Shown here: positions 4,201 to 42,523 of the stretch, one piece after another | Layout of the letters: every line of letters begins with the position of its first letter | Numbering within the stretch: position 1 is the stretch's first letter | NCBI GenBank assembly: GCA_963648975.1 | Contig: CAVJFW010000003.1 | Span: forward strand, 2,921 to 66,920 | DNA: 64,000 bases | Origin: a bacterium | Lineage (GTDB): Bacteria; Bacillota_I; Bacilli_A; RFN20; CAG-288 | Direction of reading: 5' to 3' | Made by a program: the position numbers and the translations under genes | Notes under the pieces: model-generated | Seen by the model: the letters and a program-made list of their open reading frames with translations, nothing else | Told to the model about the DNA's origin: nothing | The model's database searches: none

Positions 4201-4209
4201 TGCTTTTGC

Positions 4210-5409: not shown

Positions 5410-5412
5410 AAT

Positions 5413-5790: not shown

Positions 5791-5806
5791 AATTTACCTC
5801 GATATC

Positions 5807-21400: not shown

Positions 21401-21588
21401 AAAGGAAAGGCAATCGGAATTTGATTTTTGTGGAAGATGCTGCAGTTCGGATGGAAGGACGACTGCTTTTATGCCAAGATTGCCGGTTGGCATTTTAGAA
21501 AGGAGGGTCCAAATTCGAGTATGATTTGAACATCTATAGGATACCACTACGCTTGTCCGTTTTTTTGGACATGAAAAAAGATTACGAA

Positions 21589-22311
21589 TCAAATCGTAAT
21601 CTTTGCTCTTGTGATGATGTTTCCTTCCTTATCCTTAAGCAGATAATAGAGTTCATTGTCAATCTTCGTGTAATCGATGGTGAGATTGTCACCTTCCTTC
21701 GCTTCCTTGATGTAATTGACTTCCATCTCCTTGTAGGGTAGGTGTCTTAGCTCACTGGATTTCAGGCAATTCATGAAATAACGGATGTAGGAAATATTGT
21801 TCAGATGGTTTGAATAGTCGATGTCCGTGGATTCGACAATGACATCCCTATGGATGGTGTTTTCATTGTTGTAGTCTGGGTAGCGGTTGAACAGTCCTTT
21901 TATGGACACGTTTTCCTCTTCTGCCTTCAGATCAAGGAATGGTTTGAATTCATCTAAGTTTCTCAGCTTTCTGGTGACCATGTCGATGCTCGAGAGCTGG
22001 ATATAGGAGGTAAGAAGTGGCTCGTTCTCGTTTTCCCTGTAAAGTCTAGTGCGGAGGATGATGGCGACGGATGATTTTCTTATGGCATCCACCTTGCTAT
22101 AGATCGTATCCATGAAATGGACCCTGGAATGAAAGATGATATGGTTACGCAATACAACCATGATGGCACGATAGGTGTGATTCAGTTCCTTGGATGAGAA
22201 ACCGTTGTCACTCAAAAACTCAGTCGTCGCATCTTCGACGATCTTTGCCAATGAAAGCAGTGTGACATGCATACCGCTGTCAACCATGGAATAACGGATT
22301 TGGGTTTTCAT
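21589..22311 (-). CDS. acyl-ACP thioesterase family protein
   Basis: 240 aa with a double hot-dog layout. The second half carries DIDYSNHLNNISYIRYF (D-x-D-x-N-x-H-V/L-N-N-x-x-Y signature). It is the last gene of the fab operon. Confidence 0.65.
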   Translation of the reverse strand: MKTQIRYSMVDSGMHVTLLSLAKIVEDATTEFLSDNGFSSKELNHTYRAIMVVLRNHIIFHSRVHFMDTIYSKVDAIRKSSVAIILRTRLYRENENEPLLTSYIQLSSIDMVTRKLRNLDEFKPFLDLKAEEENVSIKGLFNRYPDYNNENTIHRDVIVESTDIDYSNHLNNISYIRYFMNCLKSSELRHLPYKEMEVNYIKEAKEGDNLTIDYTKIDNELYYLLKDKEGNIITRAKITI

Positions 22312-22393
22312 TTTGATTTCTCCAGTGATGAGTTGCCGTGTATAGGATTACGGCAATTGTGATTGATGAAAGCAGCTTTGCTTATGATGAAGA

Positions 22394-23302
22394 TTATCCA
22401 AGGATTGCCTTGATTGTATCTTCATAGCCCTGGATGTCAGAGACGTTGTAAATGTTGACAGGTGTAGTTGCCGTCTTTTTGACAAAGCTGGAAAGTGTCT
22501 TTCCTGGACCGATTTCAATGAAGGTATCGACACCTTTGTCAAGAAGGTAACGGATGGAGTCCTCGAAATAGACGGAATGGCAGATCTGAGCCTTGAGGAT
22601 GTCATTTATCGGTTCATCCATTTCCTTTCCGGAAACGTTATAGATGATTTTGTATGTCGGCTTATTGGGAGTGAAACGGTCAAGCACTTCCTTCAATTCA
22701 TCGCTGGCATGCTTCAACAGGGAACAATGGAAAGCACCAGAGACATTCAGTGGAATGCATCTTCTTGCCTTGTCCTTGAGCAGAACGATGGCATCATCGA
22801 CAGCTTTGCTTTCACCGGTGATGACTATCTGTCCAGGACAGTTGTAATTGGCGATTTCGACAATTCCGCTTTTGACTTCCTTCAATGTCTCCTGAATCGT
22901 CTCTCTGTCGAGATTGATGATGGCAGCCATCTTAGTAGTTCCAAGTGGAAGGGCGTTCTGCATGATTCTTCCACGGTTGGAGATGATCTCAATGGCATCC
23001 TTCAATGTCCACACATCAGAGAAAGTCAAGGCCGTGTATTCGCCCAAGGAAAGACCACAGCAATATTCCGGTTCGATGCCTTTATCCTTCAAGGCAGAGG
23101 CGATGCAATAGGATGTCAACAGCATTGCCTTCTGGGCATACATGGTCTGGTTGATCACTCCATCCTTGTCGATGAAGCAAAGATCCCTGACTTCAGGGAA
23201 ATCATCATAAGTCTTCCTGACGGCTGGAATCTGGTCATAGAAGTCTTTTCCCATATTGACGGCTTGGGCACCCTGACCAGCGAACAAAAAAGCGATTTTC
23301 AT
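22394..23302 (-). CDS. fabD: malonyl-CoA:ACP transacylase
   Basis: FAGQGAQ, the GLSLGEY active-site Ser motif, and a conserved C-terminal region. Confidence 0.9.
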   Translation of the reverse strand: MKIAFLFAGQGAQAVNMGKDFYDQIPAVRKTYDDFPEVRDLCFIDKDGVINQTMYAQKAMLLTSYCIASALKDKGIEPEYCCGLSLGEYTALTFSDVWTLKDAIEIISNRGRIMQNALPLGTTKMAAIINLDRETIQETLKEVKSGIVEIANYNCPGQIVITGESKAVDDAIVLLKDKARRCIPLNVSGAFHCSLLKHASDELKEVLDRFTPNKPTYKIIYNVSGKEMDEPINDILKAQICHSVYFEDSIRYLLDKGVDTFIEIGPGKTLSSFVKKTATTPVNIYNVSDIQGYEDTIKAILG

Positions 23303-23306
23303 ATAT

Positions 23307-24224
23307 TTACCTTCCTATTTTTCTGAATTTATCATATCTTTGGGAGAGCATATCCTCGACATCCATATTGGAGAGCTGTTCAATTTTTGAAATCAGGTTT
23401 TCCTTCAGCTTGTTGGAATAGTCCAAGGAAAGATATCTGAGACCTCCCAAAGGTTCGTGGATGATTTCATCGATGATTCCATATTCAAGAAGATCCTCTG
23501 ATGTCATCTTCATATAGTTGACAGCTTCCTCCGGCTTTACCTTACCTTTGAAAAGAATGGAGGAAAATCCTTCAGGGGAGAGAACACTGTAGACAGCATT
23601 TTCAAACATGTAGATGTAATCTGAAACAGTGAGTGCAAGTGCACCGCCGCTTCCTCCTTCAGAGAGGATGACGGAAATGACAGGGGTCTTAAGCATGGAG
23701 AATTCCATGAGGTTTTCGGCTATAGCCCTGGCCTGGCCTCTTTCTTCAGCTCCTTTTCCCGGATAAGCACCGGAAGTATCGACGAAGCAAAGAATCGGTC
23801 TATGGAATTTTTCGGCTTCCTTGGCAAGTCTCAATGTCTTTCTGAAACCTTCCGGAGATGTCATGCCGAAATTTCTTTTGATTTTTTCACTTGTGTCGGA
23901 ACCTTTGGCCTGTGCCAAGATGGTTACCGGATATTTCCCCAGATAGCCGATACCGGATATGATGGAGGCATCATCGGAATAATATTGGTCACCATGTAGT
24001 TCATAGAATTCAGTGATAAGATGTGAAATCAGGGTCTTTGCCTTGATTCTTTTGTCGCTTCTGGCAATACAAACCTTATCCCAAGCTGTTAGGTTGGCAT
24101 ATGTTTCCTGCTTGAATTTCTTCAGCGCATCTTTCTTTTGAAGATATTCTTCACTTTTTGGATCCAGTGTGAGAAGCTCCTCTTCCAAAGCTTCTATCTT
24201 CATTTCATTTTCTTCCAAGATCAT
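23307..24224 (-). CDS. accA: acetyl-CoA carboxylase carboxyltransferase alpha subunit
   Basis: Typical AccA motifs FVDTSGAYPG, AEERGQA and GEGGSGGALA. Confidence 0.9.
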   Translation of the reverse strand: MILEENEMKIEALEEELLTLDPKSEEYLQKKDALKKFKQETYANLTAWDKVCIARSDKRIKAKTLISHLITEFYELHGDQYYSDDASIISGIGYLGKYPVTILAQAKGSDTSEKIKRNFGMTSPEGFRKTLRLAKEAEKFHRPILCFVDTSGAYPGKGAEERGQARAIAENLMEFSMLKTPVISVILSEGGSGGALALTVSDYIYMFENAVYSVLSPEGFSSILFKGKVKPEEAVNYMKMTSEDLLEYGIIDEIIHEPLGGLRYLSLDYSNKLKENLISKIEQLSNMDVEDMLSQRYDKFRKIGR

Positions 24225-25096
24225 TATCTGTAATTATGAAGCTTTAACAAGAGACCCAAGGTCTTCTTCATATCCTTTCTTTCCACGATATTGTCGATAT
24301 ATCCTTTGCTAAGAAGGAACTCTGCTGTCTGGAAATCCTTCGGCAGGGTTTCCTTGATGGTCTGTTCGATGACTCTCTTTCCGGCAAAACCGATAAGAGC
24401 CTTTGGCTCTGCCAGGGTGATGTCGGCTAGACTTGCAAATGAAGCAGAAACACCACCGGTCGTCGGATCAGTCATTACGACGATGAACAGTTCTTTTTCC
24501 TTGAGTTTTCCAATTGCCTGACTGGTCTTTGCCATTTGGAACAGGGAAATGACACCTTCCTGCATTCTGGCACCTCCAGAGCATGTAAAGATGATGAGAG
24601 GCTTATGTTCCTTAAGTGCCTTTTCGGCCAACAAGGTGACTTTCTCACCGCAGATCGAACCCATGCTACCCATCATGAAATAGGAATCCATGACGCCGAC
24701 CAGGACACTGATGGAAGAAATCTTTCCATCAACACAGACGATGGATTCATCATCTCCTGATGTTTTTTTGGCTGTTTCCAGCTTATCCTTGTATTCCGGA
24801 AAGTCAGTATATTTTTCTTCGATGTTCTCGAATATGACGGTGTATCCTTCATCCATGACCTGGTCCAATCTTTCATGGGCATGAAGTCTTCCATGATGTC
24901 CGCAGCTCGGGCATACATGAAGATTGGAGGTGTATTCCTCGTTTAGGAGAGTCTTTCCGCAATGCGGACATTGGACAAGAAAGCCTTCCGGGATTTCTCT
25001 GGGAGTGGAGGTTTCAGGTTTTCTGATCTGAAGCTTGTCCAAGGCTTCAGAGAATTCCTTCAGCTCTTCTTTTCTTTTACTGAATGAGTCTGACAT
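24224..25096 (-). CDS. accD: acetyl-CoA carboxylase carboxyltransferase beta subunit
   Basis: N-terminal Zn ribbon CPHCGKT...CPSCGHH, then the MGSMGS and SGGARMQEG motifs. Confidence 0.9.
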   Translation of the reverse strand: MSDSFSKRKEELKEFSEALDKLQIRKPETSTPREIPEGFLVQCPHCGKTLLNEEYTSNLHVCPSCGHHGRLHAHERLDQVMDEGYTVIFENIEEKYTDFPEYKDKLETAKKTSGDDESIVCVDGKISSISVLVGVMDSYFMMGSMGSICGEKVTLLAEKALKEHKPLIIFTCSGGARMQEGVISLFQMAKTSQAIGKLKEKELFIVVMTDPTTGGVSASFASLADITLAEPKALIGFAGKRVIEQTIKETLPKDFQTAEFLLSKGYIDNIVERKDMKKTLGLLLKLHNYR

Positions 25097-26444
25097 TGTT
25101 TTCTAGCTCCTTTAGTGCCTCTTCCACAAAGGAAGTGTTGAAGTTGCCCAGGATGTATTTGGTATGATGCATGAGGTAGTAATGGAATTCAATGGTGGTC
25201 GGGACGCCTTCAATGATGAGTTCAGCCAGGGCCTCACGCATCTTTCTGATGCATTCAAGTCTTGATTCGCCATGTACGATGAGTTTGAGAATCATGGAAT
25301 CGTAGAAAGGTGGAATCTCATATCCAGGATATACGGCAGTGTCGATTCTGACCCCCTTGCCTCCAGGAAGATTCAGGAAAGTGATCTTGCCTGCAGAAGG
25401 ACGGAAGTCATTGTTGATGTCTTCGGCGTTGATTCTGCATTCGATGGCAAATCCATTCTGATGGATGTCTTCTTGTCTGTATGGAAGCTTGTTTCCCGCT
25501 GCTATTTTGATCATCAGCTTCACAAGGTCTATACCGGTGATTTCTTCGGTGATGGAATGTTCTACCTGGATTCTGGTATTCATTTCGATGAAATAATAGT
25601 TTTCATCTTCGTCAACCAAGAATTCGATGGTTCCGACTGAATCATAATTGGTTGCCTTGCAAGCCAGGATTGCAGAATCATAAAGCTTTTTCTTCAGTTC
25701 ATCGGAAATGGACTGACAGGGTGCTTCCTCAAGAATCTTCTGCTTTCTCCTCTGCATGGAGCAATTTCTTTCGAAAAGGTGTATGCAGTTATGATGTTTG
25801 TCAGCAACGACCTGAACCTCGACATGCTTTGGATTGAGGACTAATTTTTCGACATAAAGTTCATCGTTTCCGAAGAATTTCTTTGCTTCTTCCTTGGCTT
25901 CGTTGTATTTGTCAAGAAATTCCTTTTCACTGGAAACCTGACGGATGCCTTTGCCTCCGCCACCGGCGCTAGCCTTGATCAGGACAGGGAAGCCGATTTT
26001 CTGGGCGATTGCCAATCCCTCCTCACCACTGACTGCTCCATAGGATCCTGGAACGATAGGTACTCCGGCTTCCTTCATCATGGAGATGGCTTCGGACTTG
26101 TTTCCCATTTTCTCCATGACATCTGGATTGGGACCAATCCAGGTAAGTCCGCAGGTGATGACCATTCTTGCAAAGAGAGGTGATTCACTTAGGAATCCAA
26201 AGCCCGGATGAATCGCATCACAACCAGTCATGCAGGCGGCCGAAATAATGCTGGCCATGTTCAGGTATGACTGATCAGATGATGGTCCGCCGATGCAAAC
26301 TGCCTCATCGGCAAACTGGACATGAAGGGCAGATTTGTCCGCCGTTGAATAGATGGCGACGGTCTGGATTCCCATCTCCTTGCAGGCTCTGATGATTCTT
26401 ACGGCGATTTCGCCTCGGTTGGCAATCAAGATTTTCTTGAACAT
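25077..26444 (-). CDS. accC: biotin carboxylase
   Basis: KILIANRGEIA, the ATP-grasp motifs GGGGKG and EMNTRIQVEH. Confidence 0.95.
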   Translation of the reverse strand: MFKKILIANRGEIAVRIIRACKEMGIQTVAIYSTADKSALHVQFADEAVCIGGPSSDQSYLNMASIISAACMTGCDAIHPGFGFLSESPLFARMVITCGLTWIGPNPDVMEKMGNKSEAISMMKEAGVPIVPGSYGAVSGEEGLAIAQKIGFPVLIKASAGGGGKGIRQVSSEKEFLDKYNEAKEEAKKFFGNDELYVEKLVLNPKHVEVQVVADKHHNCIHLFERNCSMQRRKQKILEEAPCQSISDELKKKLYDSAILACKATNYDSVGTIEFLVDEDENYYFIEMNTRIQVEHSITEEITGIDLVKLMIKIAAGNKLPYRQEDIHQNGFAIECRINAEDINNDFRPSAGKITFLNLPGGKGVRIDTAVYPGYEIPPFYDSMILKLIVHGESRLECIRKMREALAELIIEGVPTTIEFHYYLMHHTKYILGNFNTSFVEEALKELENNVRLIQ

Positions 26445-26446
26445 AG

Positions 26447-26869
26447 TCAGTCTCCCAAGACAAACAGTGCCTGATCGAATTCCACCATGTCACCTTCGTT
26501 GGCAAGAATTTCCAGTACGGTACCATCCTTGTCGGCGGTGATTTCATTCATGACCTTCATGGCTTCAATGATACAGAGCTTGTCTCCTTTTTTGATATGC
26601 TGTCCAACAGAGACAAAAGGCTTTCCATCCTGATATGGAGCCTGATGGTATGTGCCGACCAATGGTGATTTGATGGTCTTGCCAGAGGTGGGCTTGACTT
26701 CTTCCTTGTTTTCTTCATTGGAAGCTTCAACAATTGGTGTACCATTTACGACAATAGGCGTCATTTCCTTTGTCAGCTTGATTTTCACGCCATCATCTTC
26801 GACTTCCAAGGAAGAGATGTTCGCTTTTTCAAACAGATGGATTACTTTTTCTATTTCTTCGAGTTTCAT
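26447..26869 (-). CDS. accB: biotin carboxyl carrier protein of ACC
   Basis: C-terminal CIIEAMKVMNEI biotinylation motif; 140 aa. Confidence 0.9.
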   Translation of the reverse strand: MKLEEIEKVIHLFEKANISSLEVEDDGVKIKLTKEMTPIVVNGTPIVEASNEENKEEVKPTSGKTIKSPLVGTYHQAPYQDGKPFVSVGQHIKKGDKLCIIEAMKVMNEITADKDGTVLEILANEGDMVEFDQALFVLGD

Positions 26870-27105
26870 TATCTGGAACCTCCTTTTTTCTTTTCAACCA
26901 AGGCAACGACATCATTTACCGTGATGAGGGTCTTGAGTTCTTCAGGTTCAATCTTGATTTTGAAATGTGTCTCCAGCTCCAGGGCCATTTCAACGGCATA
27001 AAGGGAATCAAAGGAAAGATCTTCCTTTAGTCTTGCCTCAGGGTTGATCTTATCTTCCTTTACGTTTGCAGTATCAATCAATAGTTGCTTTACTTCTTCG
27101 AACAT
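26869..27105 (-). CDS. acyl carrier protein (ACP-2)
   Basis: 78 aa with the DLSFDSLYAVEM phosphopantetheine-Ser motif and an AGGAGG RBS. Its stop overlaps the accB start. Confidence 0.8.
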   Translation of the reverse strand: MFEEVKQLLIDTANVKEDKINPEARLKEDLSFDSLYAVEMALELETHFKIKIEPEELKTLITVNDVVALVEKKKGGSR

Positions 27106-27117
27106 TGTCGAAACCTC

Positions 27118-27867
27118 CTATTTTTGGCCTTTGTTTCTTTCTTCGTCCCAGAAATTCTTCAGGAATATCTTATAGGCACCTTCCGTGAATGGTGGTTTGC
27201 TGAGTGACTGCAGTTCTTCAGCGGAAAGGGTTCCTTCATTTCGAAATACTTCACCTGCCTTTATGAATTTGTCGAGATAGCGGTTTAATTTGTTCTCGTT
27301 ATGCAGATCGACAAGTGTCTTCATCTGTGGAACGAGAATCGGCGTATAGTTTCCTTTTCCCATTATGGCGTCATGTTGAGCTATCAAGGCCTGATAGACA
27401 CCATTCGTTTCGGTATATGCACAGGTCGAAATCAGAATAAATCTCTTGCTTGCATCCGGATACCTAAGTCCGTGGAAGGACTCGCCGTTATCAGGAGCTT
27501 TCTGTCCTTCATATGTGGACATCATGCAGAGAAGTCTGTCAGTGAGAACCTTCATGATTCCCGGCATGGAGAAATAATAAAGCGGATAGGAACAAATGAT
27601 GATGTCAGAATCAAGAATCTTCTGCTTGACCATATTCACATCATCGTCTTTTATGACGCATTCACCCGCCGTTCTTCCCCAGCAGGAGAGGCATCCCATG
27701 CAAGGTCTAATGTGGAGAGCAGAAACATCGATCATTTCTATTTCCAGGTCCGATTTGAAGTTAAGTCCCTTTAAGAAGGCCTTTGTGACGATGAGGGTAT
27801 TGCTGAGAGTCCTTCTTGGAGAACCATTCAACACCAAAACCTTCCTGGGGGAAAATTTATTCTCCAT
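27118..27867 (-). CDS. flavodoxin-fold NAD(P)H/FMN reductase-like protein with an iron-sulfur-flavoprotein Cys motif
   Basis: VLVLNGSPRR (FMN_red/flavodoxin-like N-terminus) and the compact CMGCLSCWGRTAGEC (C-x2-C-x2-C-x7-C) motif. Its ATG lies 11 nt inside the 3' end of fabZ. Confidence 0.65.
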   Translation of the reverse strand: MENKFSPRKVLVLNGSPRRTLSNTLIVTKAFLKGLNFKSDLEIEMIDVSALHIRPCMGCLSCWGRTAGECVIKDDDVNMVKQKILDSDIIICSYPLYYFSMPGIMKVLTDRLLCMMSTYEGQKAPDNGESFHGLRYPDASKRFILISTCAYTETNGVYQALIAQHDAIMGKGNYTPILVPQMKTLVDLHNENKLNRYLDKFIKAGEVFRNEGTLSAEELQSLSKPPFTEGAYKIFLKNFWDEERNKGQK

Positions 27868-28312
27868 AGATGGCTTCTTTGTTGACGGAAGTGAATGTCA
27901 TGCTTCCTTTGGCATACACAACATCATCTACCTTTACGATGGCATCAAAGCTTGTGAGAGGACCAAGAACCTTGCTCTTCTTTACCGTGATGACAAGTGT
28001 GTCACCTGGTATGACAGGCTTGATGAACTTGAAATTGTCGACTTTCAGAAGGACATAGATCTGACCATCCTTCACTCCGTCGGAATCGATGACCAAGGAA
28101 CTGAGCTGTGCACAGCATTCGATGACAAGGACACCTGGCATGATTGGAGCATCAGGAAAATGACCCATGAAATATGGCTCGTTGACAGAAACGTTCTTGA
28201 TTCCGGTGGCAGAGACGTTTGGCTCAAGTTCGATGACTTTCTCAATCATCTGGAATGGTGGACGCTGTCTGATCTTCTTATTGATGTCGTTGATATTCAT
28301 TACTGCTTTCAT
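27857..28312 (-). CDS. fabZ: 3-hydroxyacyl-ACP dehydratase
   Basis: EPYFMGHFPDAPIMPGVL active-site motif; 151 aa hot-dog fold. Confidence 0.9.
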   Translation of the reverse strand: MKAVMNINDINKKIRQRPPFQMIEKVIELEPNVSATGIKNVSVNEPYFMGHFPDAPIMPGVLVIECCAQLSSLVIDSDGVKDGQIYVLLKVDNFKFIKPVIPGDTLVITVKKSKVLGPLTSFDAIVKVDDVVYAKGSMTFTSVNKEAIYGE

Positions 28313-29043
28313 TATAAGGATAAACCTCCATCGAGTGTGATGACCTGACCGGTGAGATAGCTTGCCTCATCGCTGACGAGCATGCTGACGACATTGGCGA
28401 TATCTTCTACTTCACCAAGTCTGTGAAGCGGAATTCTGTCAAGGTTGGCCTTCATCTGTTCTTCAGGGATGTGATCGAGCATTTCGGTCTTGATGAAGCC
28501 TGGTGCGATGGCGTTGACACGGATTCCATATCTTGCCAGTTCCTTTGCAGCAGTGGCAGTGAAGGAATTGACGGCACCTTTCGTTGCGGAATAGACCGTC
28601 TGACCTGGCAAGGCGAATTTTCCGGAAACAGAGGACATGTTGACGATTGCTCCATGCTTCTTTCTCATCATCTTCAGGGCAACCTGTTGCGTGCAGTAGA
28701 AATAACCTTTGATGTTGAGATTTGTGCAGAGGTCAAGATTGTCCGGATTCATCATCAAAAGATATTCATCCCTGACGATGCCGGCGTTGTTGACGAGAAC
28801 ATCGATCTGGCCATAGGTCTTGAAGACTTCGTTGACCATCTTCTTTACTTCGTCGAGCTTGGAAACATCAGCCTTGTAGGCAATGGCTTCTCCCCCGTCG
28901 GCCTTGATTGTTTCGACAGTATTGAGTGCTGCTTCTTCGCCATGGGAGTAGTTGACGACGACAAGATAACCATCTTTTGCCAAACGGATGGCAACACCTT
29001 TTCCGATTCCCTTGGAGGAACCTGTGACAATTGCGACTTTCAT
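28312..29043 (-). CDS. fabG: 3-oxoacyl-ACP reductase
   Basis: TGSSKGIGKG, NNAG, YSATKGA and a classical SDR layout. Start set at MKVAIV, which has AAGGAGA 7 nt upstream. Confidence 0.85.
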   Translation of the reverse strand: MKVAIVTGSSKGIGKGVAIRLAKDGYLVVVNYSHGEEAALNTVETIKADGGEAIAYKADVSKLDEVKKMVNEVFKTYGQIDVLVNNAGIVRDEYLLMMNPDNLDLCTNLNIKGYFYCTQQVALKMMRKKHGAIVNMSSVSGKFALPGQTVYSATKGAVNSFTATAAKELARYGIRVNAIAPGFIKTEMLDHIPEEQMKANLDRIPLHRLGEVEDIANVVSMLVSDEASYLTGQVITLDGGLSL

Positions 29044-29059
29044 GAATGATTCTCCTTTT

Positions 29060-31450
29060 TTATTTGCTGATGATGACGGCAGTATAGCTTCCACCGGAAG
29101 CAAAGGCCGTGACCAAGATGTGCTTCATATCCTTGCCATAGGCAGTTGTGTTGATGACACCGGACTTCTTGAGAAGGTAGCAGGATTTGTCTTCCTTGAC
29201 GGTCTCAGAGACAAGCAGTGAAGCATCGACCAAGGAAAGAAGTGCTGCATTGGCTCTGGCTTCACCGATTCTTCTCTTTGTGGAGATGATCGGCAAGGTT
29301 TCGAGTCTGTCTTTGAAGACCTTTTCATAGACATTCTTTTCAAGATCGTCGATGGCTTTCATGCCATTTGCGAAACCGGAAATGGCAGAGATGTCATCGA
29401 TGGTAAGATGTGCTTCCTTCATGGCTTCGAGAATGGCTTTTTCCAGGGCAGCTTCTGATCCGGAAACATGTCCATATGGAACAGCGGAGTTGAATGTGGC
29501 ATATCCGGAAATCTTTCCGTAGGTCTTCACGCCTCTGTCCTTGGCATGTTTCTCGGATTCGAGAATCAGACTTGTGGCACCATCGGAAAGAACGAAGCCG
29601 TTGGATGAGGAGTATGGTTCGACATAACCATCGGCGACATATCCGAGCTGATGATATAACTGGCTGGTGATTGAGATGTTTTCATCGCTTCCGCTGACAA
29701 GGACCATTTCTTCCTTCTTGTTTTCAAGGATGTTCATGGCATAGCCGATGGAGGCAAGACCAGACTGTGGACCATTGCAAATGGTGACGTTGTAACCCTT
29801 GATGCCGGTGTAGATGGAAAGGTATCCCGCAGCGGCATTATATACGGTATTCGGGAACTTGAAGGCTGAACCAGCTGCATTTCCCTTTTCGGCCAAGGTT
29901 TCCTCAAAGAGACAACCCATGCCCATGGCACCTTCGCTCGTGCCATCGACGATGCCGATCTTCGTGGCATTGTCGTCAGTTATGGTGATGTTTGCATTCT
30001 TCAGCGCTTCGACACCGGAGAATGTTTCCAACTGTGAGACGACATCCCATTTTCTGTAGATGGACATCGGAATTCCGATGCTTGCGAAGTCCTCCTTGGA
30101 GATTTCGGAATGGACGTCACTTCCTTCGACCTTAACGTCATTATTGAAATTTTCGACATATTTTTCAAAACCGTTGCCAAGTGGAGTGACGATGCCAAAT
30201 CCGGTGATGACCTTATTGTCAAGATCCTTATCCACTTTGACGTCACCGACCTTGTCGGAGAAAATGATGGATGCATTGTTTCCGCCAAAGGCAAAGGAAT
30301 TGTTCATGACGTAATCCAACTTCTTTTCCTTTGCAACATTTGGAACAAAGTCGATATCTCCGGCATTTTCCTTCAATTGAGGCATATCCTCATCAGAGAA
30401 GCCTAGCGTCGGAGGAATGATGGAATTGTTGAGAGACTTGATGCAGAAAATGGCTTCGATGGAACCTGCTGCGCCAAGACAATGTCCCACCATCGGCTTG
30501 GTGGAGGAAACGCTGAGCTTGTCGTTGTCTGCACCGAAGATGGTCTTGAGTGACAGGAATTCGGCATAGTCATTCTTGTGGGTACCAGTACCATGGGCGT
30601 TGACATAACCGATTTCCTTGGCATCGATGCCGGAATTTCTGATGGCCCAGTTGATGGCGTTCATCTGTCCTTCGCCATCTTCCCTAGGGGCAGTGATGTG
30701 GTGGGCATCGGTGGAGACACCGCTTCCGAGAACCTCACAGTACATATGTGCTTTTCTCTTCATTGCGTGTTCATAGGATTCGACGATGAGAATGCCACTA
30801 CCTTCTCCGAGGTTGATGCCTGTGGTATGGTTGAAGGAGGAACACTGTTCTGGATCCATGGCGTGGAGGGCGAGGAATCCGGCATATGGAACGCTGGCAA
30901 AGGCATCGGTACCACCGCAGATGACAACATCTGCTCTGCCGTCACGGATAAGGTCTGTGGCATAGGAGATGGACATGGTACCTGCTGCACAGGCGTTGGC
31001 AATGGTGGTTACGACACCACCTGCATTGACATATCTTGCGACCTGGGAAGAGATGCATGCCATAGGCATCTGAAGAATCTCTTTGGTTTCCTTTCCTTTG
31101 GTGTAATAGTTCTCGATGGCATCGACACCTGCGACGCAGTTGCCGATGATGCAGGAAACGCGGGAGGAATCCTCAAATTCTTCAATTCCGGCGTCTTTCA
31201 GAGCTTCTTTTGCGGCATGAATGCATAATTTTGTTGCCCTGTCGAGATATTCCCCATTTCCGATGTCGCTAAGGTCGGTATGGACTTCGCTTGCCTTCTT
31301 TGCATAGCATCCTTCGGTTGGAACGGATGTGATTTCCTTTGTACCTGAAATGCCTTTGATCGCGTTATCGAAGCATTCCTGGACATTGTCACCGATGGAA
31401 GTGATCATTCCTAAGCCGGTGACGACACAACGATTTTTGTTTTCAGTCAT
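29060..31450 (-). CDS. fused beta-ketoacyl-ACP synthase (KAS I/II-type) plus catalytically degenerate KS-like (CLF-like) domain
   Basis: The N-terminal half has ANACAAG (Cys), DAHHITAP and NAHGTGT (His-His) and GHCLGAAG. The C-terminal half has a KS fold but reads NGPQSG / FANGMKA / IGEARANAA at the corresponding positions. Confidence 0.8.
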   Translation of the reverse strand: MTENKNRCVVTGLGMITSIGDNVQECFDNAIKGISGTKEITSVPTEGCYAKKASEVHTDLSDIGNGEYLDRATKLCIHAAKEALKDAGIEEFEDSSRVSCIIGNCVAGVDAIENYYTKGKETKEILQMPMACISSQVARYVNAGGVVTTIANACAAGTMSISYATDLIRDGRADVVICGGTDAFASVPYAGFLALHAMDPEQCSSFNHTTGINLGEGSGILIVESYEHAMKRKAHMYCEVLGSGVSTDAHHITAPREDGEGQMNAINWAIRNSGIDAKEIGYVNAHGTGTHKNDYAEFLSLKTIFGADNDKLSVSSTKPMVGHCLGAAGSIEAIFCIKSLNNSIIPPTLGFSDEDMPQLKENAGDIDFVPNVAKEKKLDYVMNNSFAFGGNNASIIFSDKVGDVKVDKDLDNKVITGFGIVTPLGNGFEKYVENFNNDVKVEGSDVHSEISKEDFASIGIPMSIYRKWDVVSQLETFSGVEALKNANITITDDNATKIGIVDGTSEGAMGMGCLFEETLAEKGNAAGSAFKFPNTVYNAAAGYLSIYTGIKGYNVTICNGPQSGLASIGYAMNILENKKEEMVLVSGSDENISITSQLYHQLGYVADGYVEPYSSSNGFVLSDGATSLILESEKHAKDRGVKTYGKISGYATFNSAVPYGHVSGSEAALEKAILEAMKEAHLTIDDISAISGFANGMKAIDDLEKNVYEKVFKDRLETLPIISTKRRIGEARANAALLSLVDASLLVSETVKEDKSCYLLKKSGVINTTAYGKDMKHILVTAFASGGSYTAVIISK

Positions 31451-31490
31451 TTTCTTTTGTTTCCTTTGTGATTTTCAAATATTCAAATTG

Positions 31491-31520
31491 TGAAGAAAAA
31501 AAGTGGCATAATGCCACTTT
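31491..31520 (-). terminator. intrinsic terminator/attenuator between ACP-1 and the KS gene
   Basis: AAAGTGGCAT / ATGCCACTTT hairpin, followed on the minus strand by T7. It lies in the 82-nt gap after the ACP stop. Confidence 0.6.
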
Positions 31521-31532
31521 CATGTACGATGT

Positions 31533-31781
31533 TTACTTCTTGTTGGCAATGATATAAGCAGCGATGGTATCAATGCTTCTGAAGTTTTCCTTGGCAACAC
31601 CAGTCATGGAAACCTGATATTGTTCATCGATGTGGGAGATGATTTCGATGGAATCAATGGAATCAAGTCCGATTTCAGTGCCTTCGAACAATGGAGTGGA
31701 GAATTCAAGGCTGTCTGCATCGACACCGAGATTCTCGACGATGAAATCCTTAAGGTCCTGCTTAACTTCGTTTTCGTTCAT
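31533..31781 (-). CDS. acyl carrier protein (ACP-1)
   Basis: 82 aa with the GLDSIDSIEI phosphopantetheine-Ser motif. It is the first gene of the fab operon. Confidence 0.75.
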   Translation of the reverse strand: MNENEVKQDLKDFIVENLGVDADSLEFSTPLFEGTEIGLDSIDSIEIISHIDEQYQVSMTGVAKENFRSIDTIAAYIIANKK

Positions 31782-31823
31782 GATTAATTTTTCCTTTCAT
31801 CAATTAAGATAAACTTTCGATAT

Positions 31824-31853
31824 ATTATATAAAATAATATAGCTGAATGTCAA
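31824..31853 (-). promoter_or_regulatory. sigma-A-type promoter of the fab operon
   Basis: On the minus strand: TTGACA (31853-31848), an 18-nt spacer, then TATAAT (31829-24). This is about 45 nt upstream of the ACP-1 ATG. Confidence 0.55.
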
Positions 31854-31983
31854 AAACTGACGTTGCAATTGTATCACCCTATTTTGCCTCGGACAATACA
31901 TTCACTTCGGAATGGACATATTTTCTTTGATTTGTCGCATCAATTCATGCTGTTTTAAAGGAATATATATTTCAAAATAATGA

Positions 31984-32535
31984 CTATTCATGTATTTTGA
32001 CAAAATAATGGAGATTTGGAAAAATCTCAAAACATATGGCGGATATTTCATCCACGGAGAGGTCAAAGTCATTCTCCACCCATAGTTCGACTACGTTCAG
32101 CATGGCACTCATCAATGCCTCAAGCTGATATTCCTCCTTCTTGTCATATCTTTTCTTTTCCATTTCCGGAAGGTATTTGAGCAACGAGGATACCCTTGCC
32201 TTGAATATGAGCCTTACGATTCGTTCGTTATTCTTGACTATCGTAAATAGATTCTGATACCACTTCTCGGGATGGGTGATGTTTTCCTTCGTATTCAGTC
32301 CATTGAACAGAAGGTGGAAGACCGAAATGGAAAAATCCTTGAGGATATCTTCCTTTGATTTGTAGTTTCGGTAATAGGCTGACCTTGATACACCCGCCTT
32401 CTCCACGATTTCCGTCACGGAAATATCCTGGATTTCCTTTTTTCCCAAAAGATAGACCAATGCTTCCTGGATCGCGTTCTTGGTCAGATGATTTATTTCT
32501 TCGTTGGATAGTTTCAGATTTTTGTTTTCATTCAT
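31984..32535 (-). CDS. TetR-family transcriptional regulator
   Basis: HTH ISVTEIVEKAGVSRSAYYRNYKSKEDIL. It lies immediately upstream of the fab promoter. Confidence 0.8.
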   Translation of the reverse strand: MNENKNLKLSNEEINHLTKNAIQEALVYLLGKKEIQDISVTEIVEKAGVSRSAYYRNYKSKEDILKDFSISVFHLLFNGLNTKENITHPEKWYQNLFTIVKNNERIVRLIFKARVSSLLKYLPEMEKKRYDKKEEYQLEALMSAMLNVVELWVENDFDLSVDEISAICFEIFPNLHYFVKIHE

Positions 32536-33113
32536 TTGATTTTTTTCTTCATTGTCAAAAGGTAGCTGTTTTCGGTTTCTTCTGCCTTGATGATGTCAAA
32601 GGAATCAAGATATAAGGATGCTTCCTCATTTACAGGAAGAAGATTCCTGGAAATCGGTGATATGCCTTGATGTACTTTTGAAAGATAATCTCTTGAGATA
32701 TCATGGACGATTGCCAATATGCCATCCTTTGAAAGAACTTCTAGGGATTTTCTCTTGAATTTCCCAAGATCGAGGAAGTGGGGATAGGAATCAAACAGGA
32801 CGATTTTGTCAAAACCTTTCCTTTTCGTCAAATAGAAATCTTCATTGACAAAAGTCACTTTTGAATCCGGTATTCCTTTTTCCAGGGCAAAATGTATCAT
32901 CTTGTCGGAAAGATCCATGGCAATGACGGTTTCTAGGCTTCTTTCATATAGTCTTTCTGATATTACGCCTTTTCCACATCCGAGATCGAGAACACTGTCA
33001 CCTTTTCTTATTCCGATTTCATCGAGCAGGGAATCTATGAGACAAAAATCTTTTTTTGCGCCGTTGTCATATTCCTCTGCGATGCTGTTGAAGAATTGCT
33101 GTATTATATTCAT
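32532..33113 (-). CDS. class I SAM-dependent methyltransferase
   Basis: Motif I VLDLGCGKGV and the post-I acidic residue (AMDLS). Its stop overlaps the TetR start. Confidence 0.75.
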   Translation of the reverse strand: MNIIQQFFNSIAEEYDNGAKKDFCLIDSLLDEIGIRKGDSVLDLGCGKGVISERLYERSLETVIAMDLSDKMIHFALEKGIPDSKVTFVNEDFYLTKRKGFDKIVLFDSYPHFLDLGKFKRKSLEVLSKDGILAIVHDISRDYLSKVHQGISPISRNLLPVNEEASLYLDSFDIIKAEETENSYLLTMKKKIK

Positions 33114-33227
33114 GTTCGTTTTTCTTTTTGATAAATGTTAGCATAATTCCATCTGTTTACCAATCAGATGAACGATATTCTCATTATCATATGAAGAACA
33201 ATGATGAATTTCAGGGAGGTATAAGAC

Positions 33228-33953
33228 ATGATCAAGGCAATCCTGTTTGACCTGGATGGAACACTCTTGCCAATGGATGAGAAAAAATTCACCGAAAAAT
33301 ATTTTTCGCTGTTGGCAAGGAAACTTTACCCTTTAGGTTATGAACCCAAAAAACTTGTGAATGCCATTGTGGCAGGACTTGAAAAAATGTATGCAAATGA
33401 CGGAACGGAATCAAACGAGGCTGTCTTCTGGAATACATTCAATACTTTTTATGATGAAGACAAAAGGAAGGACTCCGAAACATTCCTTTCCTTCTATGAA
33501 AACGAATTTTCCAAGACAAGGGATGAGACAAAGCCTAATCCCATGGCAAGGGAAATCATCGACTTCTGCAAGTCCCATTTTGACAAGGTAATTCTTTCGA
33601 CTAACCCTATTTTTCCACTTGAAGCACAGAAGATGAGATTGTCTTTTGTTGGACTTGAATATGACGATTTTGATTTTGTGACCGATTATTCCAATTCCGG
33701 CCATTGCAAACCAAATCCGTGTTTCTTCAAGGATGTTTTGGATAAATGCCATCTTCTGCCAGAGGAAGTCATTCTTTTCGGAAATGATTATCTTGAGGAT
33801 GGAGACTGTGCTTCATCATTGGGAATCAGGACATATCTCATCGATGGATGTCTTTTACATAAGGAAAAGGCAAAAGGTGATTATCCGGTCTTATCCATGA
33901 GTGAAGTCATACCTACCTTGGAAAAGGAAATCCTTAACAATGGAACTCACTGA
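33228..33953 (+). CDS. HAD-family hydrolase
   Basis: Motif I ILFDLDGTL, motif II STNP and motif IV GNDYLEDGD. Confidence 0.8.
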   Translation: MIKAILFDLDGTLLPMDEKKFTEKYFSLLARKLYPLGYEPKKLVNAIVAGLEKMYANDGTESNEAVFWNTFNTFYDEDKRKDSETFLSFYENEFSKTRDETKPNPMAREIIDFCKSHFDKVILSTNPIFPLEAQKMRLSFVGLEYDDFDFVTDYSNSGHCKPNPCFFKDVLDKCHLLPEEVILFGNDYLEDGDCASSLGIRTYLIDGCLLHKEKAKGDYPVLSMSEVIPTLEKEILNNGTH

Positions 33954-34461
33954 AATCATAAAAAGACGGTATTCCACAAGAGATTATTCTTCCAAGGAAG
34001 TTCCTCTCCCGTTGCTTAGGGAGGTCATCTCCGAGGCTAGACTTGCCCCATCGGCAAAGAACCATCAACCTTATCGTGTCATCTGTATCAGGAATGCCTC
34101 AATCATTGAAAAACTGAAAAAAGAACAGATTCCCCTGTTTAATTCACAATGTGTCCTGGTTTTTCTTGGAAGCTATGACCTAGCTTGGAAAAACAAGAGA
34201 GATGAAGGGAAAGGAAGTCAGGAAATGGATCTTTCCATATTCATGACATATGTCAACCTTTTACTTGAAGACAAAGGAATCTCATCCTGCATCATTGGTG
34301 CCTTTGACAAAGTTGCAGTATCAAATATTCTCGATATTCATGATTCTTTTACTCCTTATGCCTTAATGACCGTCGGCTATGCGTCAAAGCAGTCGGAACC
34401 CTGTTCTCCATTTCATGACCATAGGAAGGATATCGATGAGTTGTTCACCGTGGTCGATTGA
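33940..34461 (+). CDS. nitroreductase-family protein
   Basis: IIKRRYSTRDY and APSAKNHQPYR motifs. Start placed at MELTEI, overlapping the HAD stop by 14 nt. Confidence 0.75.
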   Translation: MELTEIIKRRYSTRDYSSKEVPLPLLREVISEARLAPSAKNHQPYRVICIRNASIIEKLKKEQIPLFNSQCVLVFLGSYDLAWKNKRDEGKGSQEMDLSIFMTYVNLLLEDKGISSCIIGAFDKVAVSNILDIHDSFTPYALMTVGYASKQSEPCSPFHDHRKDIDELFTVVD

Positions 34462-34502
34462 AATCTCTTGCATTCCCTTTTTCTGAATCCTATACTATCA
34501 GC

Positions 34503-34588
34503 GTTACGGCGGGACTGCATATTGCGGTTGAGAGGGTTTAAACCCGACGCTTAGAACCTGTTGGTCAAGACCAGTGTAGGGAGTAAAC
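34503..34588 (+). promoter_or_regulatory. TPP (THI-box) riboswitch aptamer
   Basis: TTGAGAG...ACCC...GAACCTGTTGGTCAAGACCAGTGTAGGGAG matches the CUGAGA / ACCUGAUCUGG..CCAGCGUAGGGA core. P1 is TTAC/GTAA. It is upstream of a ThiT-like gene. Confidence 0.8.
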
Positions 34589-34617
34589 AAAACGATCGAT
34601 TGTTCACTTGTCTATTT

Positions 34618-34646
34618 GCCTTGCCCGATTTGGTCAAGGCTTTTTT
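34618..34646 (+). terminator. TPP riboswitch expression-platform terminator
   Basis: GCCTTG ... CAAGGC hairpin followed by T6, 20 nt before the thiT ATG. Confidence 0.7.
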
Positions 34647-34666
34647 AATAGCCGGAAAGGTCATTT

Positions 34667-35647
34667 ATGGAAGAAGCAAGGACGAAAAATAAATTTAGTA
34701 GGGAGAAATCCCAAAAATCGATTGCCCAGATCGTCATCTCGGGCATGATGCTGGCTTTGGCAATTGCCATGGAAGGTATTTCCAAATGCATACCTTTCTT
34801 TTCATGGCCACTTGGTGGATCTGTATCCATCACGATGGTTCCCTTGATACTTGTCGGTCTGTATTGTGGTCCATTATATGGTGTCGTCATTTCCGTTCTC
34901 TTCGGTGTCTTCAATTTCCTGCTTGATGGTGTCATTTCCTGGACACCGAATGTCACGGCTGTCATTCTCTCCCTGATCTTGGATTATGTCATTGGCTTTG
35001 GTGCATGTGGACTTAGCTCCATCTTCAGGAAGAAATTCTTCCAAAAAGATAGATTTGCCTGTCTTTATGCTACTCTGCTTTGTGGATTTGTCAGACTTGT
35101 TTCCAGCTTCTTCAGCGGCATGATCGTCTTTACCACGGCTTTTGACTACAGTTCCACGTCAGGACTTACGCCGGCGTTCACCTGGGCTGGATTCACTTAT
35201 TCATTGGGCTACAATGCCGGATATATGTTGCCTAGCATCGCACTTGACATCCTTGTCTTCTTCGTTCTTATCAAGCCGTTGTTCATTTCCCTTGATACGA
35301 CAATCGTGAAGAATCTTGCTCCAAAGAACAGCGAGGAAACTAAATCCCTTCCTCTTCCCTCTTTCCTACAGATGCTTCCCATCTATCTTCTTTTCGAAGT
35401 TGCCTTTGGCATCGTCAGCATGATTCCATCTCTCAAGGTAAGTTATTTTGGATACTTTGGCATTATGCTTGGTGTCGGACTTGTCAGCTACATATTGGTA
35501 GGTCTTATCAAGAAGAAAGATGAGATGAGTGTTAATCAAAGAATTCTTTATATCGTTTATCTTTTCGTTTCCCTTGTCGGCATCGCCTTATGCATCACCG
35601 GATGTGTTTCACCTGTCACATATGGTGCCACGTCCTATTCTGAATAA
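34667..35647 (+). CDS. thiT: thiamine transporter ThiT (ECF S-component-like) with an extra C-terminal membrane domain
   Basis: The N-terminal ~200 aa resemble ThiT/YuaJ (WPLGGSVSITMVPLILVGLYCGPLYG). Residues ~205-326 add about 3 more TM helices. TPP riboswitch upstream. Confidence 0.7.
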   Translation: MEEARTKNKFSREKSQKSIAQIVISGMMLALAIAMEGISKCIPFFSWPLGGSVSITMVPLILVGLYCGPLYGVVISVLFGVFNFLLDGVISWTPNVTAVILSLILDYVIGFGACGLSSIFRKKFFQKDRFACLYATLLCGFVRLVSSFFSGMIVFTTAFDYSSTSGLTPAFTWAGFTYSLGYNAGYMLPSIALDILVFFVLIKPLFISLDTTIVKNLAPKNSEETKSLPLPSFLQMLPIYLLFEVAFGIVSMIPSLKVSYFGYFGIMLGVGLVSYILVGLIKKKDEMSVNQRILYIVYLFVSLVGIALCITGCVSPVTYGATSYSE

Positions 35648-35679
35648 AGCTTGTAAAAAAAGAATTTTTTTGTCAAATA

Positions 35680-35709
35680 AGATGGATGGAATGCTTCATC
35701 CATCTTTTT
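35680..35709 (+). terminator. intrinsic terminator
   Basis: GATGGATG ... CATCCATC hairpin followed by TTTTT. Confidence 0.6.
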
Positions 35710-35755
35710 ATTCATCTGATTTTTTTCTATAATTTAGTCAAGGAAGTAATGAAAT

Positions 35756-36487
35756 ATGGATAATTGGTTCATCTCGCTTGTCGATAGATTTGATGGATAC
35801 GGAATTGCCGTATATGTTCTTCTGACCTGCCTCATTGCCGGTCTTCTTTCTTCCATCATCGGATTGGAAAGAGAATTCAAGGGTCAGCCTGCGGGTCTTA
35901 GGACACATGTACTCGTTTCAATAGGATGCTGTCTTCTCATGTCGTTATCCATCTATGCCATAAAGAGAGCAGTCCAAGACACAAGCTACAGTTCCCTAAG
36001 CTATGATGCAAGCAGAATCGGTGCCGGTATCCTTTCCGGCGTCGGCTTCATCGGTGCGGGAACCATCATAAAAAGCGGACTGAACATCCGTGGACTTACC
36101 ACAGCTGCCACATTGTGGCTTACGGCTGCTCTTGGTATGGCATGCGGTTGTGGATTCATCTTTGAGGCAGTCATCGTCGCCATCGTCAGCATGTTCTTCC
36201 TCATATCGCTTACCTATGTCGAGAAATTCTTTGAGAAAAGGTCTCCTACCTTCGTCCTGTTGGTTCAGAATGATGACGGATATGAAGAGGAAATCCGCAA
36301 GGAAGCATCCAATTATGAAATGCATATCAAGAACATGATCGTCCTGGGAGAAGAAAAAAAGGATGAAGATTCCTATACCAGGATCCTTGTGAAACTTTCT
36401 TTCAGACCGGATAAGGAAATGTTACGTCTCTTTGAACAGAGACTTCATTCCCTGGATCAAGTCAAAATGGTCGAGAGAATTCATTGA
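35756..36487 (+). CDS. MgtC/SapB-family membrane protein
   Basis: SIIGLEREFKGQPAGLRTHVLV signature and a C-terminal ACT-like soluble domain. Confidence 0.8.
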   Translation: MDNWFISLVDRFDGYGIAVYVLLTCLIAGLLSSIIGLEREFKGQPAGLRTHVLVSIGCCLLMSLSIYAIKRAVQDTSYSSLSYDASRIGAGILSGVGFIGAGTIIKSGLNIRGLTTAATLWLTAALGMACGCGFIFEAVIVAIVSMFFLISLTYVEKFFEKRSPTFVLLVQNDDGYEEEIRKEASNYEMHIKNMIVLGEEKKDEDSYTRILVKLSFRPDKEMLRLFEQRLHSLDQVKMVERIH

Positions 36488-36625
36488 TTCATCTTTTTTC
36501 ATGAACTTTCCTTTTTCTGATTGTATACGCTTTATATGAATAAATTTAAATCAGGAAATATCTTTTCATTGCCAATATAATGAATGATTATTAAAATATA
36601 GATATTTTTATGGGGGTTGTCTGAT

Positions 36626-40390: not shown

Positions 40391-42523
<2,133 letters not shown>

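Follow-up and report, generated by a model that had tools for sequence, protein, structure and literature searches.

In type II polyketide synthases (PKSs), such as those of actinorhodin (1tqy) and ishigamide (Iga11/12; 6kxd) and the ApeO/ApeC pair, an active ketosynthase (KS) subunit, KS-alpha, and an inactive partner, the chain-length factor (CLF), share one active site and tunnel, and minimal systems of this type initiate by decarboxylating malonyl-acyl carrier protein (malonyl-ACP) without a KAS III enzyme. What has been called the first CLF in a fatty-acid pathway belongs to the ladderane cluster of the anammox bacterium Brocadia fulgida, where amxFabF2 and the dead amxFabFmut, its Cys replaced by Val or Thr, are inactive singly and, as a heterodimer, decarboxylate malonyl-ACP and form acetoacetyl-ACP (bioRxiv 10.64898/2026.05.19.726425). 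A KS and a CLF-like domain in one chain are found in PfaC of the polyunsaturated fatty acid synthase (6riw). Here we analyzed a window of 64,000 nucleotides (assembly GCA_963648975.1, contig CAVJFW010000003.1, positions 2,921 to 66,920; GTDB lineage Bacteria; Bacillota_I; Bacilli_A; RFN20; CAG-288), in which a gene at 29060..31450 on the minus strand encodes a FabF-type KS fused to a second KS fold that has lost its catalytic triad (KS-KS'). We favor, as the probable reading, that this didomain protein is a single-chain, KS/CLF-like pseudo-heterodimer acting as the sole KS of a FabH-less type II cassette, primed by its N-terminal half and yielding saturated fatty acids; the structural part of this reading is well supported, and the functional part is what we infer.

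The gene runs in one frame through 796 codons to its stop, with a ribosome-binding site (AAAGGAAA) 5' of its ATG, and the 796-aa product contains two copies each of the Pfam domains ketoacyl-synt and Ketoacyl-synt_C. Its N-terminal half (N-half; residues 1–400, 30251..31450, minus strand) is an active FabF-type KS by FabF models and by its triad, namely Cys154 (ANACAAG; codon 30989-30991), His286 (NAHGTGT; 30593-30595), and His323 (GHCLGAAG; 30482-30484), with Lys318 (30497-30499) and the gating Phe388 (30287-30289) also retained (all codons on the minus strand). These five residues were invariant across 120 homologues; a search of 5.8 billion proteins, clustered at 90% identity, had returned >120 clusters that are 54%–100% identical to the query at 100% coverage and all ~790–830 aa long. 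The full triad that an initial annotation of the sequence had read in the N-half stands as to the Cys and the His residues of NAHGTGT and GHCLGAAG, but the His it took from DAHHITAP lies in a conserved D-A-x-H-x-T-x-P motif and is no triad residue. The N-half aligned end to end with Bacillus subtilis FabF (4ls5; 284 bits, 39% identity) and passed the broader subfamily model NF005589 (448 bits, cut-off 387); with the curated FabF equivalog TIGR03150 it scored 471.5 bits, below the trusted cut-off of 493.75. The combination that marks FabF (Cys-His-His, Lys335, gating Phe, and a thiolase fold of ~410 aa) was found in the N-half only. A short inter-domain linker with a conserved G-D/N-V motif occupies residues 401–412 (30215..30250, minus strand; pLDDT 86–95) and the KS fold restarts at residue 413, in agreement with the linker near residue ~410 that had been proposed.

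The C-terminal half (C-half; residues 413–796, 29063..30214, minus strand) keeps the KS fold by profile and PDB matches: hhalign aligned its profile with that of the N-half at 99.9% probability over 375 columns, and phmmer matched it to FabF structures down to 4e-27. At the catalytic sites it has Pro561 for the Cys (codon 29768-29770), Phe693 for the first His (His1; 29372-29374), Glu730 for the second (His2; 29261-29263), and Ser785 for the gating Phe (29096-29098), while the Lys of the KS active site is retained as Lys725 (29276-29278; all minus strand). The strings quoted for this half in the initial annotation (NGPQSG, FANGMKA, IGEARANAA, VITGFGIVTPLGNG, and FASGGSYTAVII) were all found in the protein, and its description of a KS followed by a catalytically dead KS-like half is borne out by the FabF models and the profile alignment, with the triad complete in the N-half and gone from the C-half. 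A displaced but complete triad was ruled out, as hhalign and phmmer are ungapped at the three sites and no alternative Cys, His, and His are conserved. The C-half thereby has what characterizes a CLF, a KS fold with a lost triad that pairs with an active KS. Because it is far closer to FabF (98 bits in phmmer) than to the actinorhodin KS (46 bits) or CLF (37 bits), it probably degenerated independently from a FabF-like domain, outside the clade of aromatic-PKS CLFs. Its most conserved part is the invariant segment F532-P-x-T-V-Y-N-A-A-x-G-Y-L-S-I546 (FPNTVYNAA-G-YLSI), which aligns with FabF residues 134–148 (V-P-S-T-I-V-N-M-V-A-G-H-L-T-I). In FabF acyl-enzyme structures, the stretch around residues 133–134 supplies residues to the acyl pocket of the partner subunit, and on account of this alignment we propose a tunnel-shaping, CLF-like role, in which the C-half, by way of the 532–546 segment and the dimer interface, probably completes the N-half's acyl tunnel and sets its size.

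An AlphaFold2 model of the whole chain, built from an 80-sequence alignment, had a mean pLDDT of 92.7 and a pTM of 0.94, the latter indicating a confident mutual arrangement of the two halves; its sole low-confidence stretch (residues 531–540, pLDDT 53) falls inside the most conserved C-half segment. The top Foldseek match in the PDB was the KS-CLF didomain of PfaC (6riw; TMq 0.79, 916 columns, E = 5.6e-51), whereas single FabF chains reached a TMq of only 0.47, that is, one half of the query. As 6riw spans both halves and FabF chains span one, the prediction is an intramolecular pseudo-dimer of KS/CLF type, with the halves packed in the manner of a KS dimer or KS-CLF pair, as the initial annotation had envisaged. 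In place of the two identical active subunits of a FabF homodimer, we found a second KS fold in cis, without a triad, in a single compact predicted body.

By sequence, the closest solved relatives of both halves are chains B and C of 9s5h: chain B matched the N-half with 280 bits, almost level with B. subtilis FabF, and chain C, likewise without the Cys (NGVTSS), was alone in the PDB in matching the C-half over its full length. We presume that 9s5h/9s5i represent the amxFabF2/amxFabFmut complex, since residues and chain sizes agree with the preprint, whose text gives no PDB code; a literature search on 9S5H returned nothing specific. The anammox pair and the system described here have in common an active FabF-like KS, a FabF-derived partner without Cys-His-His, a dedicated ACP, and FabZ; unlike the present didomain, however, the anammox proteins are two polypeptides from two genes, have Val/Thr at the Cys position with no conserved neighboring Gln, and belong to a radical-SAM ladderane cluster in Planctomycetes. 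The anammox heterodimer is a direct precedent for initiation without FabH by a FabF/dead-FabF pair at the active subunit's site. PfaC resembles the didomain in having KS and CLF-like domains in one chain, in identical order and with pseudo-dimer packing, but the two are 16% identical, and PfaC runs on into FabA-like dehydratase (DH) domains and works in the PfaA-D megasynthase. Here, instead of DH domains in the same protein and PfaA, PfaB, and PfaD nearby, the chain ends at residue 796 and discrete FabG and FabZ genes adjoin. The type II PKSs likewise combine an active KS with an inactive partner, but as separate subunits, and aromatic-PKS CLFs have Gln exactly at the Cys position and stand in clusters with a cyclase or aromatase, in contrast to the Pro561, the fusion, and the operon without cyclase or aromatase found here. 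From the FabF/KAS II homodimer, with which the typical FabF of the N-half agrees, the didomain differs in that the partner subunit is a fused dead copy.

The didomain is the only condensing enzyme of an operon that also encodes accBCDA, fabD, fabG, fabZ, two ACPs, and a thioesterase, all on the minus strand. Directly upstream stand the gene of a TetR-family regulator, kept in close relatives (31984..32535), a sigma-70-type promoter-like site with 12/12 consensus positions (31824..31853), and the gene of a divergent, dedicated ACP (ACP1; 31533..31781), which is separated from the KS gene by a terminator- or attenuator-like 10-bp GC-containing hairpin followed by a T tract (31499..31521). Since this promoter lies 5' of ACP1 and the hairpin and T tract precede the KS gene, the arrangement suggests that ACP1 may be transcribed in excess with partial read-through, comparable to acpP-fabF in Escherichia coli. 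Downstream of the didomain follow genes encoding a FabG-type 3-oxoacyl-ACP reductase (28312..29043), a FabZ-type 3-hydroxyacyl-ACP dehydratase (27857..28312), a flavodoxin-like FMN reductase of 249 aa that is a candidate enoyl-ACP reductase (27118..27867), a second, AcpP-like ACP (ACP2; 26869..27105), the acetyl-CoA carboxylase subunits (accB, accC, accD, and accA; 23307..26869), the malonyl-CoA:ACP transacylase FabD (22394..23302; TIGR00128 263 bits, cut-off 260.9), and a FatA/B-type acyl-ACP thioesterase (21589..22311), after which a terminator-like hairpin marks the operon end (21577-21604).

We compared 19 related loci, comprising 15 of the subfamily and 4 outgroups, with ≤22 kb per relative and 64 kb for the window genome. 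The core ACP1-KSKS'-FabG-FabZ-flavoprotein was present in 15/15 subfamily loci wherever the contig allows, and the full operon (acc, fabD, and thioesterase) was seen wherever the contig extends far enough. ACP1, found in 17 of the 19 loci (L007 begins inside the KS gene, and L017 has none at the threshold used) and always placed immediately before the KS gene, ranks first in conservation among the operon's proteins, at 93%–96% in relatives where the KS stands at 71%–79%; it has no detectable BLAST similarity to ACP2, which is restricted to full-operon lineages. The two ACPs might divide labor, perhaps between priming and elongation. The gene order is common to relatives labeled Bacilli, Candidatus Enterosoma, Erysipelotrichaceae, and Clostridia, and to a genome deposited as Treponema rectale, and the core also occurs in Lachnospiraceae- and Treponema-labeled metagenome-assembled genomes (MAGs), beside patatin, PlsC-like acyltransferases, FabD, AccD/AccA, or thioesterase, or alone. 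In the Treponema-type loci neither acc nor fabD accompanies the five-gene core, which stands by itself, and in one Treponema-labeled MAG (L011/L012, 14469-15971) the core is followed by an amine-oxidase/phytoene-desaturase-like FAD enzyme, which hints that the acyl product may be modified, perhaps desaturated, in that lineage. The T. rectale locus (L015; CP031517.1, 242958-265351, from a complete 2.86-Mb genome) is colinear with positions 21600-37200 of the window over 22 kb at ~70%–73% nucleotide identity, with an IMP dehydrogenase that is 87% identical. The other close matches are labeled Bacilli or Eubacteriales MAGs, with no other Treponema among the top 120; the conflict points to an error in the T. 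rectale record or in the MAG labels, or else to a misplaced lineage. Convergent with the thioesterase gene is a gene for a lipoprotein of the ApbE (flavin transferase) family (19927-21366, plus strand), which has the same place in L015.

Searching the window and all 19 loci by tblastn with E. coli FabH, we found no FabH-like sequence and only faint matches to the KS, so that the absence of FabH stated in the initial annotation holds for the 64-kb window and the related loci. E. coli FabI as query found no FabI in the same sequences, with faint matches to generic short-chain dehydrogenase/reductase (SDR) proteins; the SDR at 10012-10824 is gluconate-5-dehydrogenase-like. An overlooked FabK-like (NMO) gene is improbable among the long open reading frames of the window, ~35 of which were read by eye only.

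The flavodoxin-like reductase matches the Pfam families FMN_red and Flavodoxin_2 and has four invariant Cys in a CxxCxxCx7C arrangement, with a fifth Cys that is invariant too; a pattern of this kind is typical of iron-sulfur (Fe-S) flavoproteins. It was encoded in 15/15 subfamily loci and 0/4 outgroup loci. Its best PDB sequence match (7d38; E = 1.7e-9, residues 10–113 including the Cys motif) is FLR, an FMN-dependent flavone ene-reductase of gut clostridia that reduces the C=C bond of alpha,beta-unsaturated carbonyls (PMC7862272). Close homology to FLR holds only in part, covering ~100 N-terminal residues by sequence, while the predicted structure (pLDDT 94.6) is nearer to FMN-dependent azo/quinone reductases (TMq ≤0.58), with FLR ranking 36th. 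That the protein is an enoyl-ACP reductase is a reasonable hypothesis from context and chemistry, in which case it may represent a new class of such enzymes. On enoyl-ACP reductases of flavodoxin-like or Fe-S flavoprotein type, a literature search returned nothing specific.

HMMER, run exhaustively with the C-half on 1.84 billion representatives, gave 11,796 matches at E<1e-3, of which 114 also passed E<1e-30, and the best 150 matches were mostly two-KS proteins of 750–870 aa in dozens of 50%-identity clusters. Among the members of this fused family that we examined, Cys, His, and His are present in all N-halves and the Cys is missing from nearly all C-halves; Glu at the His2 position is common to many, whereas the NGxQSG...F...K...E.R signature is restricted to the close subfamily. 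The didomain described here has the properties of the family throughout (~750–870 aa, C/H/H N-half, Cys-less C-half, and adjoining ACP, ketoreductase (KR), and FabZ/ApeI-like DH genes). Named members come from Clostridium fungisolvens, two Paenibacillus species, a Spirochaetales MAG, and a Helarchaeota MAG, and are all annotated generically as "beta-ketoacyl-ACP synthase family protein"; our literature search found no description of the fused gene as a KS/CLF fusion and none linking a fused KS-CLF with granadaene. Fused KS-KS' together with ACP, KR, and DH is, judging from these gene neighborhoods, a general iterative cassette in Firmicutes.

The nearest described clusters of this kind are the cyl operon for granadaene of group B Streptococcus (GBS), with CylI, and further polyene clusters of Firmicutes. 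GBS CylI is probably itself a fused didomain, as the naming "CylH/I" suggests, the sequence actually compared being a homologous 812-aa KS-KS' fusion from Paenibacillus (P0132). Such clusters also lack FabH, and are themselves without an enoyl reductase. They differ from the present operon in the ~32% identity of the fusion, a more degenerate C-half (Lys lost), a conjugated polyene amide as product, and the lack of flavoprotein, acc genes, and thioesterase. One outgroup locus, of Paenibacillus shirakamiensis type (L017), has the order FabD-like, KR, ACP, DH, CylF-like aminomethyltransferase (GCV_T), and KS-KS', which is that of the streptococcal granadaene operon, cylD-cylG-acpC-cylZ...cylF-cylI (PMC4315905; named "CylH/I" in PMC6985545). 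Two others, from C. fungisolvens (L016; BLZR01000001.1) and a Paenibacillus piscarius-like genome (L018), contain ACP-KSKS'-KR-DH cassettes, and a third outgroup-type locus reads ACPS-ACP-KSKS'-KR-DH-FabD-AccD-AccA. L016 and L018 also carry a radical SAM enzyme, 2–4 open reading frames of ~50–60 aa, a BtrH_N-like protein, an ECF sigma factor, and ABC transporters, with accB, accC, and accDA of its own in one of the two, and by this content they look like a cluster for a lipidated ribosomal peptide.

In the reading that we favor, the N-half would be the only condensing active site and the C-half a non-catalytic, FabF-derived stand-in for the second KS subunit, and the didomain, ACP1, the FabG-like ketoreductase, and the FabZ-like dehydratase would together form an iterative type II cassette. 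The subfamily cassette would have gained the flavodoxin-like Fe-S/FMN reductase and, in the window genome, it stands with accBCDA, fabD, the AcpP-like ACP, and the thioesterase. Initiation would proceed at the N-half Cys-His-His site, where malonyl-ACP would be decarboxylated to acetyl-ACP before self-acylation and condensation, priming by the N-half being more likely than by the C-half. Because the reductase, accBCDA, fabD, ACP2, and the thioesterase join the cassette, saturated fatty acids are its most likely product, and a housekeeping role in fatty-acid synthesis (FAS) is plausible but unproven.

Several other explanations were weighed against this reading. That two adjacent KS genes were fused by an assembly error or frameshift is hardly credible: although genes of this type are at times called as two, as in the annotation "CylH/I" of the streptococcal cyl operon (PMC6985545), the uninterrupted architecture recurs in 120+ clusters drawn from many assemblies made independently, with complete contigs of 1.69 and 2.86 Mb among them, and some clusters hold thousands of member sequences. 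The segment spanning residues 398–413 has the same length in 107/120 homologues and conserved linker residues, the model is confident through the junction, and purifying selection extends across it (dN/dS 0.07–0.29 for the C-half versus 0.04–0.13 for the N-half, with 0.07–0.09 in the least saturated pairs), the C-half evolving ~2 times as fast as the N-half and yet under clear purifying selection. A fusion artefact near residue 410, which the initial annotation had named as a possible refutation, is thus ruled out. The same annotation suggested that a Gln of the C-half might be equivalent to the Gln with which CLFs decarboxylate malonyl-ACP, so that the C-half, as a CLF/KS(Q)-type decarboxylase, would prime the pathway in place of FabH. 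This residue, Gln562 (29765-29767), is retained in 117/120 homologues and forms with Lys725, Glu730, and Arg732 (29255-29257; both codons minus strand) a nearly invariant vestigial pocket; in the model it also sits at the N-terminus of a helix, the nucleophile's place in a real KS. The N-half helix, however, begins at Ala153 with the Cys as its second residue, whereas the C-half helix begins at Ser563 by DSSP, and the nucleophile elbow is therefore remodeled. Both phmmer against E. coli FabF C163Q, with ungapped flanking anchors, and hhalign against the protein's own N-half family put Gln562 at Cys+1 (Asn559 = Asn152, Pro561 = Cys154, and Gln562 = Ala155, ungapped through N-x-C/x-x-x-G...SI.YA), and the Cys-equivalent position itself varies among the 120 homologues (Ala 61, Ser 24, Asn 14, Pro and others), which rules out equivalence with the CLF Gln on register. 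In KS(Q) loading domains the Cys is replaced by Gln and both His are kept, whereas here the Gln is offset by one and both His, which KS-type decarboxylation needs, are missing along with the gating Phe. For these reasons priming by the C-half is unlikely, the more so as Gln is missing from most members of the wider fused family, whose clusters are likewise without FabH, and as the anammox heterodimer decarboxylates regardless of the Val/Thr in its dead subunit.

A specialized, highly reducing type II PKS-like pathway for a polyene or special lipid, with any housekeeping FAS encoded elsewhere, is a more serious competitor, which we still regard as rather improbable. The nearest outgroups lie in the cyl-like L017 and in the radical SAM/peptide/ABC transporter clusters L016 and L018, some outgroup clusters having their own acc and fabD genes; ACP1 is matched best by an aryl-polyene-type ACP model, FabZ also matches the ApeI-like family, and FabG also matches FlxB; and the Treponema-type core occurs alone. 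Yet the operon has no tailoring enzymes, exporters, or CylE-like acyltransferases, its reductase is found in every subfamily locus and in no outgroup, and it includes a FatA/B-type thioesterase, an AcpP-like ACP2, and full accBCDA. It also mirrors the streptococcal/clostridial fab gene order with one gene per function, if KS-KS' is counted as FabH plus FabF and the flavoprotein as FabK, and in other taxa its neighbors are patatin and PlsC-like acyltransferases. It is less probable still that the didomain only elongates, with FabH or a FabY- or MadA-like initiator elsewhere or with the KS taking acetyl-CoA directly. FabY of Pseudomonas aeruginosa is a KAS I/II-type initiator that condenses acetyl-CoA with malonyl-ACP. 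Non-FabH initiators do exist, such as MadA (PMC8666670) and Pseudomonas putida FabB (PMC10869286), and the inspected sequence amounts to 64 kb of the window genome and ≤22 kb of each relative, but the 19 loci, where every other fab function is clustered, yielded no FabH-like sequence, and type II PKS-like cassettes of the fused family generally do without KAS III. Some points also weigh against the pseudo-heterodimeric, N-half-primed saturated FAS enzyme that we prefer. The genomes, of which ~22–64 kb each are visible, could hold FabH, FabF, or a known enoyl reductase in other places. The homology behind the enoyl-reductase role is weak (E = 1.7e-9 over ~100 residues; TMq ≤0.58). Close relatives of the cassette occur in secondary-metabolism-like clusters, some with their own acc and fabD, and operon content alone is therefore no proof of housekeeping FAS. 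Finally, the conservation of Gln562, Lys725, Glu730, and Arg732 hints at a C-half function beyond a purely structural role.

KS/CLF pairs, fused KS-CLF domains (PfaC), and the gene family in known clusters are already known. What appears to be new is the combination seen in these abundant bacteria of gut and rumen, an FAS-like operon that has a stand-alone fused KS/dead-KS for its only KS and couples it to a non-canonical reductase. Accordingly, the covalent KS/CLF fusion in a primary FAS operon that the initial annotation had pointed out is confirmed as a fusion, with precedents in PfaC and the ~800-aa family, while "primary FAS" is plausible, unproven. A broader reading, which we put forward tentatively, is that the five-gene module is a self-sufficient, unrecognized FAS II without FabH and without FabI/FabK/FabL/FabV that serves as the housekeeping system of abundant, uncultured Bacilli of gut and rumen and of their relatives, among them perhaps lineages in which fatty-acid synthesis was reported to be absent. 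The fused KS/CLF-like enzyme would then initiate and elongate, the reductase would be a new class related to gut ene-reductases, and a polyene-type cassette would have gained the reductase, or the reverse. If so, gut anaerobes would have a widespread alternative to FAS II in which the FabH and FabI/K/L/V steps are performed by other families, and antibacterials targeted at FabH and FabI would miss carriers of the operon. Calls of fatty-acid auxotrophy for uncultured, genome-reduced gut bacteria would need revisiting, an example being RF39, reported to lack the fatty-acid pathway entirely (PMC6784871). The didomain would also be the second case of a CLF in a fatty-acid pathway after the anammox pair, fused and much more widespread, and a soluble, single-chain KS/CLF would be a convenient scaffold for studying and engineering chain-length control. 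A literature search for FAS in Acholeplasma returned nothing specific.

Elsewhere in the window, two DegV (FakB-type fatty-acid-binding) genes (50538-51416, minus strand, and 51874-52737, plus strand) flank a UPF0029 gene (51482-51877, plus strand), and a DegV gene also adjoins the operon in L015; with the thioesterase, the pair would fit a route from acyl-ACP via free fatty acid to acyl-phosphate by fatty acid kinase. A cluster at 1814-7512 (minus strand) encodes phosphoenolpyruvate carboxykinase, a BirA-like biotin ligase, and a putative Na+-pumping oxaloacetate decarboxylase, with membrane (beta), biotin-carrier, small, and carboxyltransferase (alpha) subunits recognized by eye, and constitutes a second biotin-dependent system besides acetyl-CoA carboxylase. 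A c-di-GMP-I riboswitch (17536-17609, plus strand; 56 bits) lies directly 5' of a gene for a membrane protein with RYGGDEF (17659-18765, plus strand), so that a c-di-GMP sensor would control a putative diguanylate cyclase. A thiamine pyrophosphate riboswitch (34498-34599, plus strand) is located 5' of a membrane protein gene (34667-35647), whose colinear counterpart in L015 encodes a YuaJ/ECF-type thiamine transporter. A predicted lipoprotein of 710 aa (40391-42523, plus strand) carries long collagen-like G-x-x repeats followed by a beta-helix-like region.

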